A stretch of 33,030 nucleotides of DNA from a virus (taxonomy: Duplodnaviria; Heunggongvirae; Uroviricota; Caudoviricetes): IMG/VR virus record IMGVR_UViG_2548876960_000009; one strand, given 5' to 3'. The notes under the pieces were generated by a model. That model ran no database searches. It had not been told where the DNA came from and saw only the letters and a program-made list of their open reading frames with translations. The position numbers and the translations under genes were made by a program. Below are positions 6,261 to 29,836 of the stretch, one piece after another. How positions within the stretch are numbered: position 1 is the first letter of the stretch; every line of letters begins with the position of its first letter.

Positions 6261-6662
6261 TTAATTCGTGTACGTGATCTGGTACGTGATTTCCGCCATC
6301 GCCCAGGTGGCCATCTCATTATCACGTTGATAGTTAAAACCGAGAGGGATCAGGGTGTCGATGAGTCCGGAAAGTGCCGGTATATCATTCAGAGCCGGGA
6401 AAATGGTGCTCTCCATCCACATATCCAGCTCTGAATCCGGTGCCTGTGCCCGGATGAAGACAGCAATATGCAGAACAGCCTGCCAGTCATCTTCATCCGT
6501 CATTTTTCCGGTGTACTGAGCATCACTCAGCCACACCGCCACGGCAGGCAGTTCCTGCGCATCAACAAATGCCGGAAGCCCGTCAAAAAACGTGGCGCTG
6601 TCTCCACACTGTTCCCGAAGGCGTGCCAGTACGACCTGGCGGATTTGTGTATGTCGGTTCAT
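6261..6662 (-). CDS. U: Tail terminator protein U
   Basis: ORF with ...DSATFFDGLPAFVDAQELPAVAVWLSDAQYTG...DSELDMWMES..., gpU-like; the ATG at 6662 overlaps the Z stop (ATGA). Confidence 0.8.
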   Translation of the reverse strand: MNRHTQIRQVVLARLREQCGDSATFFDGLPAFVDAQELPAVAVWLSDAQYTGKMTDEDDWQAVLHIAVFIRAQAPDSELDMWMESTIFPALNDIPALSGLIDTLIPLGFNYQRDNEMATWAMAEITYQITYTN

Positions 6663-15912: not shown

Positions 15913-16114
15913 TTTTCACTTTCTTAAATCTAACGACAGACGGCTAACATTTAAGTATTGTGAAATATTATCAAATGTAATCATCATTGATTTACAAAAG
16001 ATACATTTTGCCCCGAAAGGATTCCTGTCAGAAACATCAAAAGATGATGTTCTATACTGAGAACCATGGCAACACGGGCATCTAAAGTGAATATGGTTTG
16101 TAATATTTTCTACC

Positions 16115-16327
16115 TCAAAGTGCCACTACATGAACAGCCGCGGGGCCTTTAGGTCCGTTCTCAATACCAAATTCGACTTGCTGATTCTCAGTTAACGTTT
16201 TGAAATCGTTGCTCTGAATAGCTGAGAAATGGACAAACACATCTTTGCTACCATCTTTCGGCGTGATGAAACCAAAACCTTTTTCAGGGTTAAACCATTT
16301 CACTAAACCAGTCATTTTGTTAGACAT
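16115..16327 (-). CDS. cspI: Cold-shock protein CspI-like (CspA family)
   Basis: 70-aa [48 protein letters not shown]..., RNP1/RNP2 cold-shock domain; closely matches K-12 CspI as recalled. Confidence 0.9.
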
Positions 16328-16690
16328 TATTATTACCTTTTGAAGAAGTTAGCCCTTGGGCAGAATGGTCCGAAAAAAAATATCAGAGAGAAAAACCAAC
16401 AAGGAAATCTCAAGAGGTACAAATAATAAAATTATAACAATGACTGCTTCAGATAATTTTGTAACAAACCAGAACACCATTAACGCATGATTAACCAACC
16501 ATAGCAAGGATTACTTTTGTAAAGAAAAACACACGAATGAAACAATAGCTTTATTTATTAATAAAACGTGTCATTCTGTCTAATGACCTTTTATCTTACC
16601 CTTAAGATTTCAAGGATTTTGACTCATGGAAGAGTCCTTTTTATTTAAATTTCACATTCAGCGCTAAAAATAATCCGATTTAATATTAAT

Positions 16691-19285: not shown

Positions 19286-19563
19286 ATTGTGGTACTTTTT
19301 GTGGGAGTCATCCACTTACGCACTTTGTTTTGCTATGCCAGCAGTTAGCTTCTGCTGTAAAACTATTCATGCAGCAAACCTGCACTTCACCACAATGGTT
19401 AGCATACTTTTCCTGATTAAGTTATTGCCAAATATGCTGGCCATCGTTTCATGTATTGGACCTCCTTACTATTTATTAAAGAGATCCAATATTCACCACT
19501 CTGTCTGTATCTCCACTCAGGCATCAGCCTTCTTCGTTATCGTATACAGACAAACTATGAATT

Positions 19564-19779
19564 TTAATCAGTAATTATGACATTTGCTGCTGCAGGACCT
19601 TTAGCACCACTCTCTACAGAGAAGGTAACCTTTTGACCTTCAAATAAGGTTCGAAAATTATCATTCTGAATCGCAGAAAAATGCACAAACACATCTTTAC
19701 TACCATCAACAGGAGAAATAAAGCCGAAACCTTTATCAGCGTTAAACCATTTTACTAAACCAGTCATTTTATTTGACAT
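19564..19779 (-). CDS. cspB: Cold-shock protein CspB-like
   Basis: 71-aa [56 protein letters not shown]... Confidence 0.9.
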
Positions 19780-20079
19780 TCTACATTCCTTAACTTGAGC
19801 CTTTCGGCATAAATGGCTTGTATAACAGAAACGACTTCGTACTTAATTGGAGAGACTCAAAGAAGGAATAAGTGAATAACACCTGAAATGAGAACTGCTT
19901 TAGTAAACTACTTCGTATATCGTCTGTTCTTCAAACCGACGCAATCATTAACGCATAGTTGAACATATGAAGCAATGTTTATTTTAGACATCCAGCCATC
20001 TTCAACCCCATCAAAAAACTATAGCTTTCTTCAGGAACGTGTGTATAGTGCGCCCAGTTATCAGTATTAAGGAATTTTT

Positions 20080-20707: not shown

Positions 20708-21460
20708 TTATCTCGTCACTTTTCTTAATTGCACCTCAGCATATGCTTCTTCCTGCCAGCACTTTGTAACCAGTTTATCAATGACATCTGCATATCCTTT
20801 GTACCACTGATAATCAGTCAGGTCTGGTACCAGCTTCTGGACATGACACCGCGCCAGTGTCGTTGGTAAACGACTAAACCGGTTTCCATTGCAACGCCCA
20901 CAAATCTTATAAACAGGTGTGCCATGAAGCCGGGTCCTTTTTTCATCCAAGACAATACCTTTACCCTTACACCCTCTGCACGCTGTGCTGACTTCTCCCT
21001 TACCATGGCAATGCTGACATAGTTCCTTCACCCACTCTTCTTTGATAACAGATTCCCCGCTTCTGGAGTGTTTCACCACTTCGCGCAATACATTATGAAA
21101 TCCAGTACCAGCACAATGCTCACAACGAGCCTTACTTGCCGCAGACCTGGAATAATCAGCAAAGGCAAAATTCACAAGGTAAGGAATAATCTGTAGCCGG
21201 GTTTCTTCACTCAATTTATTCAATGTCGGGTTATCCAGTGCCATCGCGTAATTGAGCAGACCTTCAATCGCAAACTGAGGATCCTGAACACCAACTTTTG
21301 CCAGGAATAAGGCAAACCCAAGCGGTGCTTTCGACTGCACCATCCCCTGCGCAGCCATCACATCCGTAATCGTTAAACCACCAGAGCCTGTCGCCGGTGC
21401 GTCATCACTCAATTTTGGAGATTTTGGGGAGTAATATTTTGGTAAGGCTTCAAGGTTCAT
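20708..21460 (-). CDS. quuQ: Late-gene antitermination protein Q
   Basis: 250-aa ORF with Cys clusters (CEHCAGTGF..., CQHCHGKGE...CRGCKGKG..., CGRCNGNRF); same size as Qin QuuQ as recalled; position upstream of PR' and lysis genes. Confidence 0.85.
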   Translation of the reverse strand: MNLEALPKYYSPKSPKLSDDAPATGSGGLTITDVMAAQGMVQSKAPLGFALFLAKVGVQDPQFAIEGLLNYAMALDNPTLNKLSEETRLQIIPYLVNFAFADYSRSAASKARCEHCAGTGFHNVLREVVKHSRSGESVIKEEWVKELCQHCHGKGEVSTACRGCKGKGIVLDEKRTRLHGTPVYKICGRCNGNRFSRLPTTLARCHVQKLVPDLTDYQWYKGYADVIDKLVTKCWQEEAYAEVQLRKVTR

Positions 21461-26497: not shown

Positions 26498-26577
26498 TTT
26501 CATACAATATGTACCTCCGGTGTACATATTACATGATTGAAATGAACCTTCAAGATACTTGTACCTTAACGGTACAA
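26498..26577. promoter_or_regulatory. OR-type operator region: two inverted repeats with GTAC-N7-GTAC cores
   Basis: ATATGTAC-ctccggt-GTACATAT (26498-26520) and CTTGTACC-ttaac-GGTACAAG (26557-26577), both perfect palindromic arms, flanking the PR -10/-35. Confidence 0.65.
26525..26552 (-). promoter_or_regulatory. PR-like promoter for cro
   Basis: Minus strand TTGAAG, 16-bp spacer, TAATAT; the -10 abuts operator 1 and the -35 abuts operator 2. Confidence 0.55.
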
Positions 26578-26593: not shown

Positions 26594-27268
26594 ATGAAAA
26601 CAATCCATGACATCCGGCGGTCTAACGCCAGAAAACTGAGAGATGGTGTTGGCGGGAATTCTTCCTTTGCCACTATGATTGATCGCGAGCCAACCCAGAC
26701 CAGCAGGTTTATGGGAGATGGTGCTACTAAAAATATCGGTGACAGCATGGCACGACACATCGAAAAATGTTTCGACCTACCTGTCGGATGGCTCGATCAA
26801 GAACACCAGACAACGAACATCACAAAAAAACCTGATGTTTCAATCACTAATAAACAAATCACATTAGTCCCTGTCATATCATGGGTACAGGCCGGAGCAT
26901 GGAAAGAAGTTGGATATTCTGAGGTTGATTTGAGCACAGCAGAAACGTATCCCTGCCCTGTACCCTGTGGGGAAATGACTTATATCTTGCGGGTGATAGG
27001 TGATTCAATGATTGATGAGTACCGCCCGGGAGACATGATTTTTGTCGATCCTGAAGTACCTGCCTGCCACGGTGACGACGTTATTGCATTGATGCACGAT
27101 ACAGGTGAAACCACCTTCAAAAGGTTAATAGAAGATGGGACACAACGTTATCTCAAAGCGTTAAACCCAAACTGGCCTGAGCCTTACATTAAGATCAACG
27201 GTAATTGCTCTATAATTGGTACAGTGATTTTCTCAGGAAAACCAAGAAGATACAAAATCAAAGCCTAA
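26594..27268 (+). CDS. CI-like repressor (N-terminal HTH, C-terminal S24/LexA-type autopeptidase domain)
   Basis: 224-aa ORF; the C-terminal half contains ...RVIGDSMIDEYRPGDMIFVD... and a downstream Lys consistent with the Ser-Lys dyad; divergent from cro. Confidence 0.8.
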   Translation: MKTIHDIRRSNARKLRDGVGGNSSFATMIDREPTQTSRFMGDGATKNIGDSMARHIEKCFDLPVGWLDQEHQTTNITKKPDVSITNKQITLVPVISWVQAGAWKEVGYSEVDLSTAETYPCPVPCGEMTYILRVIGDSMIDEYRPGDMIFVDPEVPACHGDDVIALMHDTGETTFKRLIEDGTQRYLKALNPNWPEPYIKINGNCSIIGTVIFSGKPRRYKIKA

Positions 27269-27307: not shown

Positions 27308-27335
27308 TTGACAATGTACCTTTGAGATACATAAT
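27308..27335 (+). promoter_or_regulatory. PL-like early-left promoter with overlapping operator half-sites
   Basis: TTGACA, 16-bp spacer, CATAAT; the spacer/-10 contain ATGTAC-ctttgag-ATACAT, the same ATGTAC-N7-GTACAT architecture as operator 1. Confidence 0.55.
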
Positions 27336-27444
27336 GTACCCAAGAGAAACAACGAACAGGCAGGACGCCCACGAAGTAGCCGCCTGGGGCATATGAAGTC
27401 CAGGATGATTCGTTAGCAACAAAAAAGCGCCCTACAGGACGCTT

Positions 27445-27502: not shown

Positions 27503-27709
27503 ATGCACAAAACAGAACCCAAAATCGTCGCGCCTGGCTACACAGATGAGGAAATTTATGAGTGGATGACAAAGAAGCTGGCAGCTATAAACCAGCTTCG
27601 TGAAGTGCTGTCTTATCGACAGGAAACAATAGACTCCTTAAAAAAACTGGATCAGGAAATCACGGTTTTATCACAGAATGTTACTTTAGATATTGTGCAG
27701 ACAAATTAG
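27503..27709 (+). CDS. Hypothetical 68-aa protein in the N position (first ORF after PL); not arginine-rich
   Basis: ATG at 27503 with GAGGAG 8 nt upstream; MHKTEPKIVAPGYTDEEIYEWMTKKLAAINQLREVLSYRQETIDSLKKLDQEITVLSQ...; its 3' end overlaps the convergent 144-aa gene by 29 nt. Confidence 0.4.
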   Translation: MHKTEPKIVAPGYTDEEIYEWMTKKLAAINQLREVLSYRQETIDSLKKLDQEITVLSQNVTLDIVQTN

Positions 27710-28115
27710 GATCCCATTCATTTTCGTCAAAATCATCAAAGTGATGAATTTGTGATCTCCAGTCTCGATAATCTAAAAATTTCTGGGCGGTTACGCTTAT
27801 TTTATCAAGTGTGAGTTCATCCTGAATTGAAAGAAGAAGTTCATCAAATTTCATCTCATTAATCTGTTTTGGCATCCAGTGATGCTTCATCAGAATAAGG
27901 TGAACCAGAGCCTTTTTCCCATTCAACTGATTATAGGGAGTGCCGAATTTCTTCCGGTGCTCATGTAAGACAAGGTCCAAAAGAGTAAGTAATGTTGCCC
28001 TTGATTCAACTTTGCTTATTTCGACTGATGACACTACCCCACTGATTTCAATGCCCCGATACTTTCCAACATTTTCACAGTGGGATTTGTACAGCGTATA
28101 GATATTACCGGACAT
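27681..28115 (-). CDS. Hypothetical 144-aa protein, AT-rich, reverse-oriented moron next to the immunity region
   Basis: ORF with AAGGAAAAG upstream of the ATG at 28115; composition visibly more AT-rich than flanking phage genes; C-terminal ...RDWRSQIHHF... No family recognised. Confidence 0.55.
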   Translation of the reverse strand: MSGNIYTLYKSHCENVGKYRGIEISGVVSSVEISKVESRATLLTLLDLVLHEHRKKFGTPYNQLNGKKALVHLILMKHHWMPKQINEMKFDELLLSIQDELTLDKISVTAQKFLDYRDWRSQIHHFDDFDENEWDPNLSAQYLK

Positions 28116-28399
28116 TTCTTTTCCTTTTGCGTTGTTGGGGATAACCAGATTAACCGAATCCTTGTTGTTGGGGAATAACTAGGTCCACCTCGCCTGATGT
28201 GGCTAAAAGCAGGCACATAACAGCTAAGTATTTTCAACCAGAGAGAATCCTTAGCGTTGTGGTGAATGCGGCTCAGCGCACGCGGGTTAAGGTTGAGGCT
28301 GACAGTCGACCTTCTGTGGATACCCACCCGCCTGGTGTGCAACCTTCGCCAGGCACCGGGAGGCACCCGGCACCACAACTTTATGCTGTGTGTAGTCTT

Positions 28400-28446
28400 G
28401 GCGGTACCAGCTTATACCCTTGCTTCCAGCTGGTACCGCTCTTTTT
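28400..28446 (+). terminator. Strong intrinsic terminator within the early-left transcription unit
   Basis: GGCGGTACCAGC...GCTGGTACCGCT (12-13 bp stem) followed by CTTTTT; no T-run on the opposite strand. Confidence 0.65.
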
Positions 28447-28535
28447 ACAAAACAGAGAAGAGCATCACCGGACGACGGGCTCATAACCCAATCCATCCGG
28501 GCGGCTGCCACCGCAGGTGTTCTTCTCTGTTTTGT
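28447..28535. repeat. Inverted repeat: 16-bp arms (ACAAAACAGAGAAGAG / complementary arm with one G:U-compatible difference at the arm end) flanking a 57-bp GC-rich spacer
   Basis: Read directly at 28447-28462 and 28520-28535; lies between the terminator and the RBS of the YfdP-like gene. Confidence 0.7.
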
Positions 28536-28583
28536 GGAGAAACCAACCGACCTTGCAGGGTCGATATGATGAGGAACAGCAAA

Positions 28584-28946
28584 ATGGCTAGCGAACGCAG
28601 TACTGATGTGCAGGCATTTATCGGGGAGCTGGACGGCGGCGTATTTGAAACCAAAATCGGCGCAGTTCTCAGTGAAGTCGCTTCCGGTGTGATGAACACG
28701 AAAACCAAAGGGAAGGTCTCACTCAGCCTGGAAATCGAACCATTTGATGAGAACCGTGTGAAAATCAAACACAAACTCTCATATATTCGCCCGACTAACC
28801 GCGGGAAAATTTCCGAAGAAGACACCACCGAAACGCCGATGTATGTCAATCGCGGTGGTCGCCTGACAATTCTGCAGGAAGACCAGGGACAATTACTGAC
28901 TCTTGCCGGTGAACCTGACGGAAAACTCCGCGCAGCAGGTCATTAA
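28584..28946 (+). CDS. yfdP: YfdP-like protein (120 aa)
   Basis: ATG at 28584 with GAGGAA upstream: MASERSTDVQAFIGELDGGVFETKIGAVLSEVASGVMNTKTKGKVSLSLEIEPFDENRV...; size and position (before yfdQ-like) match CPS-53 YfdP as recalled. The track's upstream extension from 28266 crosses the terminator and is probably not coding. Confidence 0.55.
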   Translation: MASERSTDVQAFIGELDGGVFETKIGAVLSEVASGVMNTKTKGKVSLSLEIEPFDENRVKIKHKLSYIRPTNRGKISEEDTTETPMYVNRGGRLTILQEDQGQLLTLAGEPDGKLRAAGH

Positions 28947-29011
28947 TATCGTTCTTAATTAACTGATTATTTATCTCATCACTGAATATCTTTATATAGT
29001 GAGGACTTATT

Positions 29012-29836
29012 ATGTCTCAGAACTTAGACGCAACCGCAATTAATCAAATCCATGCTCTTATTTCTGCTCAGGGTGTTAATGAAATTATCAGTAAGATTGG
29101 TGCCGATGCTGTGGCATTGCCTGAGAATTTCCGCATTCATGATCTGGAAAAATTTAATTTAAATCGCTTCCGTTTCCGTGGTGCGCTTTCCACTGCCAGC
29201 ATCGATGACTTTACCCGTTATTCTAAAGATCTTGCAGATGAAGGCACCCGCTGCTTTATCGATGCTGATAATATGCGTGCCGTCAGTGTGCTTAACCTGG
29301 GTACTATTGATGAACCAGGTCACGCAGATAACACCGCCACTCTCAAACTGAAAAAGACAGCACCGTTCTCTGCACTGTTGTCTGTTAACAGCGAGCGTAA
29401 CTCCCAGAAGTCACTGGCAGAATGGATTGAAGACTGGGCCGACTACCTTGTGGGTTTTGATGCTAATGGTGACGCTATCCAGGCAACAAAATCGGCTGCG
29501 GCTGTCCGTAAAATCACGATTGAAGCAAACCAGACCGCTGATTTTGAAGATAATGACTTCAGCGGCAAACGCTCCCTGATGGAGTCTGTCGAAGCGAAGA
29601 CCAAAGACATTATGCCAGTGGCATTTGAATTTAAATGCGTTCCGTTTGAAGGTCTGAAAGAACGTTCTTTTAAATTACGCCTCAGCATTATCACTGGCGA
29701 TCGTCCTGTACTTGTTCTGCGCATTATTCAGCTGGAGGCTGTGCAGGAAGAAATGGCTAACGAATTTCGCGATCTGCTTGTTGAGAAATTCAAAGACAGC
29801 AAAGTAGAAACCTTTATTGGTACTTTCACCGCCTGA
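29012..29836 (+). CDS. yfdQ: YfdQ-like protein (DUF2303 family, 274 aa)
   Basis: 274-aa [51 protein letters not shown]...; size and sequence character match K-12 CPS-53 YfdQ as recalled. Confidence 0.65.

Follow-up and report, generated by a model that had tools for sequence, protein, structure and literature searches.

The segment at positions 28181-28583 of the IMG/VR virus record IMGVR_UViG_2548876960_000009, a stretch of 33,030 nt analysed here in full (the window) and representing a lambdoid prophage of the SfV/SfIV/e14 type, is a mobile module of about 390 nt, composed of a 5' block, a pseudoknotted RNA scaffold, a 20-nt linker, a terminator and leader hairpins. We consider it likely, with a probability of about two-thirds (0.68), that this GC-rich island is a transcribed member of the STnc100/PasD RNA family, working through its linker and its terminator; most likely, it is a divergent STnc100/PasD small RNA (sRNA) gene that lies within the early-left operon leader. 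STnc100 (RF02076) is a prophage sRNA of Salmonella and E. coli, and a common ancestor has been proposed for the prophage-encoded sRNAs STnc100 and PasD (Zhu, Shabalina and Storz, bioRxiv 10.64898/2026.05.13.724894).

An earlier annotation of the segment, made without database searches (the sequence-only reading), had suggested an Rfam search, which returned a full-length match to STnc100: positions 1-206 of the 206 in the model align with 28226-28448, with a score of 45.1 bits against a gathering cut-off of 47 bits, and E-values of 2.2e-8 in a local search and 8.1e-7 over the whole window. At the gathering threshold, only two cspA thermoregulators are reported in the window and the island element falls below it, which is probably why genome pipelines leave the element unlabelled. 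The homologues in SfV, ST64B, 118970_sal3 (sal3) and phiES15 score 35-41 bits for STnc100 at the same location, while canonical members of the family score 66-161 bits. Moreover, the STnc100-invariant motifs GGUGAAU and CACCGGGAGGCACCCGGCACCA are both present, exactly or nearly so, and the 22-mer CACCGGGAGGCACCCGGCACCA is common, letter for letter, to more than 120 viral contigs.

Covariation, which had also been proposed as a check, supports the paired regions across an alignment of 75 distinct scaffolds. At one position of the closing stem the pair types are AU (33) and GC (32), and helix H1 shows the pair types CG, GC and UA, its stem reading CCCC/GGGG, CUUUC/GAAAG or GCGG/CCGC according to lineage. 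The best-supported helix is the pseudoknot between the loop of H4 and an upstream strand, in which each of the seven pairs shows changes in both strands; over ten distinct H4/pseudoknot combinations, all complementary, occupy the same position (e.g., AUCAGCG/UGCUGGU, CUGGUGU/ACACCGG, AGACUGACAAA/UUUGUCAGUCU and GCCAGGUCG/UGACCUGGC). For the structure as a whole, covariation amounts to 0.234, as compared to 0.110 +/- 0.006 in shuffled alignments (0 of 500 as high) and to a maximum of 0.145 with slid partners, the value of 0.234 having been computed with the closing stem one column off register and the stem pair counts coming from a separate tally. This covariation-supported pseudoknot appears to be new relative to the literature searched and to the Rfam consensus. 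The two adjacent hairpins highlighted by the sequence-only reading are helices H4 and H5 of this larger fold, and the part of the segment that is most informative, the linker between the fold and the terminator, had been missed.

Evidence on the segment as a whole is in line with a structured RNA. Its GC content, calculated in 200-nt windows, is 0.535-0.56 over 28200-28599, against 0.345-0.425 over 27700-28199 and 0.37-0.48 over 28600-29099, so that the GC-rich island described previously is real. All structures named at the time are found in the sequence, with positions right to within one base: the hairpin GCCTGG...CCAGGC spans 28330-28354, ending one base further than had been given; CCGGG-AGGCA-CCCGG lies exactly at 28356-28370; the terminator stem pairs GGCGGTACCAGC (28400-28411) with GCTGGTACCGC (28429-28439), followed by TCTTTTT (28440-28446); and the inverted repeat pairs ACAAAACAGAGAAGAG (28447-28462) with TTCTTCTCTGTTTTGT (28520-28535) around a spacer of 57 nt, through 15 Watson-Crick pairs and one G-U pair. 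The impression that this is more structure than a simple spacer would hold is borne out by folding, as both halves fold better than their shuffles: RNA 28226-28452 reaches -88.7 kcal/mol, versus -72.5 +/- 4.8 when shuffled (z -3.36), and RNA 28440-28590 reaches -61.5 kcal/mol, versus -39.0 +/- 3.8 (z -5.88), with 0 of 200 shuffles as good in either case.

Could the segment instead encode a protein, or be a DNA site bound by one? E. coli K-12 annotates ymfH (103 amino acids) over the element, phage records place a 'hypothetical protein' there, and one open reading frame (ORF) runs in frame into yfdP. However, the segment lacks a convincing ORF, as had been claimed beforehand: substitutions relative to ST64B, whose homologue, like that of sal3, is 77% identical to the window segment, fall evenly over the three codon positions (20/23/27 and 23/27/24, i.e., no periodicity), indels among homologues measure 1, 7 and 20 nt, and stops are present in every plus-strand frame of every homologue. 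PGAP labels the stretch as a frameshifted pseudogene. Nothing was found in favour of the protein-binding DNA site, which the sequence-only reading had listed among three options; the paired positions change compensatorily, which points to RNA rather than to a DNA site, since such co-variation serves an RNA and not a DNA-binding protein. Taken together, a YmfH-like gene or a protein-binding site is extremely improbable. In addition, ARAGORN detected no tRNA or tmRNA in the window or in four homologous loci.

The K-12 annotation itself deserves a comment. The e14 'gene' ymfH (b1142) is this RNA element, lying on the minus strand at NC_000913 1201069-1201380 (locus L130, 3570-3881), and its reading frame would be closed but for the loss of 1 nt in helix H5. 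A G-to-A change in H5 is a further lesion of the K-12 copy, whose linker and terminator are intact; the counterpart of the predicted 3' end lies near 1,201,195 on that strand. In K-12 CPS-53, which has yfdP, the element was not found.

The comparison with known members of the family further supports the assignment. With canonical STnc100, the window element has in common the closing stem, H1 with its bulged A, H4, H5, a Rho-independent terminator and a location in lambdoid prophages; it differs in the sequences of H1, H4 and the linker, in having two additional hairpins, one in the middle and one on the 5' side, in lacking a recognisable promoter of its own, and in lying in the early-left leader past the CI repressor gene and the leftward promoter pL, whereas canonical copies are late-region elements close to Q, tRNA genes and stx. 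PasD1 and PasD2 (EcOnc13), of enteropathogenic and enterohaemorrhagic E. coli, are Hfq-stabilised RNAs of 172-173 nt, detected by northern blot and with many RIL-seq partners, whose seed, UGUGAG, was inferred from their RIL-seq targets (PMC8550237). When aligned with the window, the PasD1 sequence (NC_011601, 1060260-1060432) shows the same architecture, including the pairing of the H4 loop with the upstream strand. The sizes are similar as well, and the PasD seed sits in a linker directly 5' of the terminator, the slot that matches the window linker. On the other hand, UGUGAG is not in the window linker, the sequence of H5 is divergent, and PasD is a late-region RNA that is made without induction and whose 5' end coincides with the closing stem. 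Several sister subfamilies likewise have TTGACA-17-ATAAAT promoters placed for transcription to start at the closing stem. These promoters, the PasD transcripts and the position of the PasD seed indicate that the family consists of free-standing sRNA genes, with the linker as their working end. Overall, the structured noncoding RNA, one of the options considered at the outset, is the one that the data favour, given the near-threshold match along the full model, the fold in common with PasD1, the covariation and the 3' terminator.

Elsewhere in the family, canonical STnc100 occurs in tandem arrays of two or three copies beside phage tRNA genes (locus L022, 342-1038; L021, 3121-3798; L055, 7075-7327), and the STnc100 copy of L055 is convergent with an AgvB anti-sRNA gene. 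In other loci, the 5' block and the scaffold are separated by a fragment resembling the T-arm of a tRNA, GGTTCGATTCC, and by one more hairpin (L004, ~2400-2470; L006, ~2250-2330; L140); ARAGORN found no tRNA in the T-arm-fragment loci of L004 or L006.

We then focused our attention on the linker. Positions 28384-28399 are identical, at 16 of 16 nt, to nt 62-77 of RprA from K-12 (UUGCUGUGUGUAGUCUUU, the seed before the terminator of this core sRNA induced by the Rcs and Cpx systems). Sixteen nt is also the longest word common to the region and K-12 rprA; when the region was shuffled 300 times, this length averaged 7.2 and peaked at 12. If the ACAAC before the stretch and the GC after it are included, the agreement with RprA nt 53-80 is 23 of 28 positions. 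RprA reportedly uses two separate seed domains, a finding credited to Papenfort et al. 2015 (PNAS). The active, processed form of RprA consists of its last 47 nt (PMC9262595). Since processed RprA begins with AUUGCUGUGUGUAGUCUUU, the shared stretch corresponds to its unpaired head. In both RNAs the seed stretch comes directly before the terminator hairpin, but the likeness is limited to RprA nt 53-80: the window element has no homology to the 5' half or to the terminator of RprA, lacks AACGAAUU, and is phage-borne rather than located between ydiK and ydiL. It is the AACGAAUU stretch of RprA that pairs with the rpoS leader. RprA (RF00034, three stem-loops, cut-off 70 bits) was not among the Rfam matches of the window at E-values up to 10, and the phiES15 homologue gave a sub-threshold RprA match of 41 bits (E 0.065).

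The linker has the look of an element under selection. It persists although the terminator stem that follows it is of three unrelated kinds, namely GGCGGUACCAGC (E. coli), GUCGGCGUC (ST64B and sal3, where the linker has a single U-to-A change) and GCCCGC (the Cronobacter phage phiES15), and it stands behind a different scaffold in loci L206 and L227. In locus L168 (~6330-6420) the scaffold is absent and the 5' block is joined straight to the linker and terminator; there, the likeness of the linker (AACGAAUUGCUGUGUGAAGUCUU) to RprA extends over nt 55-77, with 22 of 23 positions identical. No complement of the linker was found in the window within three mismatches, so a partner in trans is to be expected. 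Functional mimicry of RprA, as judged from this identity, is a real possibility that we place somewhat below an even chance.

A second host seed may occupy the same slot in other phages. Stx2a and Stx2c phages, mEp460 and cdtI carry the same 3' half of the module with another linker, ACAAC-A-GCCACUGCUUU-GGCGG, whose core equals nt 1-11 of RybB, the 5'-terminal seed of that sRNA. This alternative linker (ACAACAGCCACUGCUUUGGCGG) was observed in L006 (2470-2530), in L131, L132, L190 and others, behind three different scaffolds. An identity of 11 nt is weak alone; it becomes suggestive as the second instance found in this slot. Our Rfam scan of 12 loci for copies of other core sRNAs was insensitive, as it did not report the 22/23 match of L168 to RprA. 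No paper on an RprA-like or RybB-like prophage sRNA turned up in the literature search, and linkers that copy host seeds appear to be new relative to the literature searched. A parallel is offered by the prophage 'anti-sRNAs' AgvB and AsxR, which mimic an mRNA target and thereby sponge a core sRNA (Tree et al. 2014, PMC4104026). They too are prophage sRNAs of modular build, combining a conserved domain with a variable one, and they disturb core sRNA networks; however, the window linker copies the core sRNA's own seed and not its target, and the conserved part is 3' and the variable part 5' in AgvB and AsxR, the reverse of the arrangement in the window family. The coordinates of all features are collected in Table 1.

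Table 1. Features of the early-left region of the window, with the type of evidence where one applies.
Feature	Position	Strand	Sequence or structure	Evidence
Operators at the right operator region (OR)	26510-26526 and 26560-26576		TGTACC-N5-GGTACA
CI repressor, S24-peptidase	26594-27268
Candidate pL with operators	27308-27351	+	TTGACA, 16 nt, CATAAT (27308-27335)	Promoter scan, 11/12 matches
Conserved 5' block	28185-28225	+	CCACC..GCCUGA.GUGG..AAAAG.CAGGCAC..AAC	Left boundary of mobile module
5' hairpin H0	28226-28252	+	AAGUAUUUUC...GAGAAUCCUU	Minimum free energy (MFE) structure; position 1 of Rfam STnc100 alignment
STnc100/PasD-type scaffold	28256-28379	+		Rfam match and covariation
Closing stem	28256-28264 with 28371-28379	+	GUUGUGGUG with CACCACAAC
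H1	28268-28283	+	Bulged A
Pseudoknot strand	28290-28296	+	AAGGUUG; partner is the H4 loop, CAACCUU (28340-28346)
Small middle hairpin	28316-28327	+
H4	28330-28354	+
H5	28356-28370	+
Single-stranded linker, putative seed	28380-28399	+	UUUAUGCUGUGUGUAGUCUU	RprA identity, conservation, PasD seed position
Intrinsic terminator	28400-28446	+	12-bp GC-rich stem, 16-17-nt loop, UCUUUUU	Sequence, MFE, Rfam alignment
Long leader hairpin	28446-28536	+	21-bp outer stem (28446-28466 with 28516-28536), two small helices inside
Small hairpin	28548-28563	+	CGACCU-UGCA-GGGUCG; 8 nt upstream of the yfdP Shine-Dalgarno

The terminator starts 20 nt past the closing stem, within the 20-45 nt at which a Rho-independent terminator follows the scaffold in STnc100. 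It had been overlooked by a terminator scan because of its unusually long loop. In ST64B and phiES15 the terminator stems are wholly different in sequence and still self-complementary. At its tail, CGCUCUUUUUA was considered as a boxA; it is boxA-like but not conserved, SfV having GUCCUUUUU there. Further downstream, the outer stem of the long hairpin is 99.3% paired in 49 distinct variants, and one of its pairs occurs as GC (42), AU (4) and CG (2), the latter two being double changes; covariation support for this hairpin is modest, as divergence is low. By analogy with the lambda N leader, the 21-bp stem is a plausible candidate for an RNase III site, or else for a leader-stability element. 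The small hairpin, which precedes the yfdP Shine-Dalgarno GAGGA (28571-28575), exists in at least four self-complementary versions in relatives (CGCCCC/GGGGGC, GGCGG/CCGCC, GGCGA/UCGCC and CGGCC/GGUCG). Both hairpins would be leader elements of a read-through mRNA.

These observations on the 3' half raise the question of whether the whole segment is simply the 5' leader of yfdP, whose structures set mRNA stability, RNase III processing or translation of the first gene, with the 'sRNA' as a decaying relic. Compensatory changes preserve both the long hairpin and the one before the ribosome-binding site, different scaffolds accompany the 3' half (28398-28583) in Stx2c phages, mEp460 and cdtI, and the K-12 e14 copy has two lesions in H5, all of which would suit a mere leader. 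Nevertheless, such a leader would not account for a scaffold and linker that hardly vary among more than 1,700 E. coli genomes and are kept across Escherichia, Salmonella and Cronobacter phages, and it leaves the RprA identity unexplained; we regard this possibility as very unlikely. As for the distribution, the island is present in 2,781 of 5,426 complete E. coli genomes (about half), with at least 80% of its length in 1,823, and in 65 phage records, and a 30-mer spanning the closing stem and the linker is found in 1,763 E. coli genomes. One scan of species-representative genomes for the scaffold with the RprA-like linker yielded genuine matches in E. coli and Shigella flexneri only; 11 further matches, from unrelated taxa, are taken to be chance.

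The genomic setting is that of an early-left operon. Weaker operator-like copies lie at 27315-27331 (TGTACCTTTGAGATACA, between the hexamers of the candidate pL) and at 27335-27351 (second half-site), and these repeats, together with a near-consensus promoter just past the repressor terminator, probably represent the left operator and pL, judging from sequence. After pL follow a 68-amino-acid ORF (phrog_1744), an opposite-strand 'moron' gene of 144 amino acids (phrog_5286), neither with an assigned function, the island, yfdP (ATG at 28584), yfdQ (DUF2303) and yfdR; a Q-type antiterminator gene lies at 20708-21460. Homology with SfV, e14, phiES15, L168 and L212 begins exactly at 28185, whatever the upstream sequence. 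The order of repressor, variable insert, island and first early-left gene is kept in SfV, ST64B, 118970_sal3, phiES15, Stx2a_1447, E. coli 13P477T and K-12 e14, and the genes next after the island are kil and gam in phiES15 and xisE and intE in e14. Two kinds of candidate promoter for the RNA were discarded by eye: a sigma-54-like -24/-12 spacing in TGGCTAAAAGCAGGCA, which the SfV and e14 forms disrupt with one inserted nucleotide, and the '-10' candidates CATAAC and GAGAAT, which have no usable -35 element.

This setting invites comparison with the put RNAs of HK022, the antitermination option that the sequence-only reading had considered together with a riboswitch-like one. According to this explanation, the scaffold or the 5' block would act in cis, making polymerase pass the terminator at 28400-28446 and later ones, and would thus replace N for yfdPQR and xis-int. 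As in HK022 or the nut-N system of lambda, a structured nascent RNA comes past an early promoter and before terminators and recombination genes. The lambda system combines boxA and boxB RNA sites with an N protein whose gene follows directly; in the window, N was not recognised, and neither the ORF after pL nor any other part gave an N-like family match. In every case the module comes after the CI repressor gene, any morons and pL and ahead of the first early-left gene, the early-left genes are beyond the terminator, in e14 xis-int is directly behind it and listed with the upstream ymfJ, and the scaffold is pseudoknotted and more conserved than the usual sRNA body. However, the HK022 early/put region shows neither a match to the family of the window element nor sequence similarity, and put RNA, of which similar copies follow both pL and pR, measures about 70 nt and forms two stem-loops arranged in a V (PMC9378689), while the window element is a pseudoknotted junction of about 125 nt that ends in its own terminator. 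Moreover, the Rfam search found a single copy in the window and none after the rightward promoter pR; the relatives of the element are independent sRNA genes, with sister copies standing free in the late region with their own promoter and terminator, sometimes in tandem, and PasD accumulating as an Hfq-bound sRNA with many partners in trans; and L168 lacks the scaffold and yet keeps block, linker, terminator and hairpin. We therefore find a put-like element quite unlikely, and the antitermination option received no support from the comparisons made here.

Returning to the sRNA gene that we favour, its mode of action would most likely be as follows. The plus-strand RNA would fold into the pseudoknotted scaffold at 28256-28379, the likeliest source of transcription being the repressor-controlled promoter at 27308-27335 after induction, or alternatively an unrecognised promoter of its own; as the module contains no recognisable promoter, the RNA may be made from pL only, after induction, and then trimmed. 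Termination at 28400-28446 would release an sRNA ending, as Hfq-dependent sRNAs typically do, in a stem-loop and a U-tail. The linker would then serve as the seed, pairing in trans with mRNAs normally recognised by processed RprA: since it carries the 16 nt of processed RprA, the phage RNA would be expected to pair with mRNAs of the second seed domain. In this way, the phage may drive part of the Rcs/Cpx envelope-stress output without stress. Polymerases passing the terminator would enter the leader hairpin with its 21-bp stem and subsequently yfdP-yfdQ-yfdR, or xis-int in e14, and with such read-through the terminator would act as an attenuator too. In K-12, the YmfT gene set includes ymfH along with ymfJ, xisE and intE (PMC12133099), which is compatible with pL-driven transcription across the terminator and does not prove it.

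Several observations weigh against this interpretation. A sigma-70 scan found no promoter in 28100-28260, and none was found inside the conserved module, whose left edge is at 28185, unlike in several sister subfamilies, so that expression in the lysogen is doubtful. The U-tail is short, with five U after UC. The STnc100 score is a narrow miss, 45.1 against 47 bits, albeit for a full-length alignment. Conservation across the family peaks in the scaffold and not in the linker, which is unusual for a seed-driven sRNA and hints that the scaffold has a function of its own. Lastly, the RybB match comprises just 11 nt.

A broader view, which we put forward as speculative and rather unlikely, is that the STnc100/PasD scaffold is a 'seed-display' platform, in which the pseudoknotted 5' domain is kept and a short 3' linker is swapped among lambdoid phages, at least two of these linkers copying seeds of host core sRNAs (RprA nt 62-77 in the window, RybB nt 1-11 in the Stx2-phage cousins). 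On induction, the phage would then impersonate envelope-stress sRNAs, and an RNase E cut at ...AC|UUU... might free an RNA similar to the processed form of RprA. Genes for the host surface and for stress could thus be reprogrammed, e.g., those of outer-membrane proteins serving as phage receptors, while the terminator of the same RNA would gate entry into the recombination and excision genes.

Other RNA elements were observed in the window and in its relatives. The two full-length matches to the 5' untranslated region of the cspA thermoregulator (RF01766), both on the minus strand (19501-19940, 158 bits; 16069-16474, 113 bits), point to two cold-shock-protein genes in the late region of the prophage. 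C4 antisense and isrK-like RNAs of the P1/P7-type immunity are present in the early-right region of SfV (L001, 1226-1414), ST64B (L003, 21-110) and L168 (3501-3702); in the window, no C4 or isrK-like RNA was matched at E-values up to 1.

Altogether, these results extend a known prophage sRNA family to a new position, the pL leader, where lambda has N, and add to the family fold a pseudoknot that is absent from the Rfam consensus. Correcting the annotation of ymfH as a protein or pseudogene is useful in itself. If the identity with RprA and RybB proves functional, prophages would be imitating host stress sRNAs at their seeds instead of acting as sponges for them, which would represent a new route for mobile elements into core regulatory networks.

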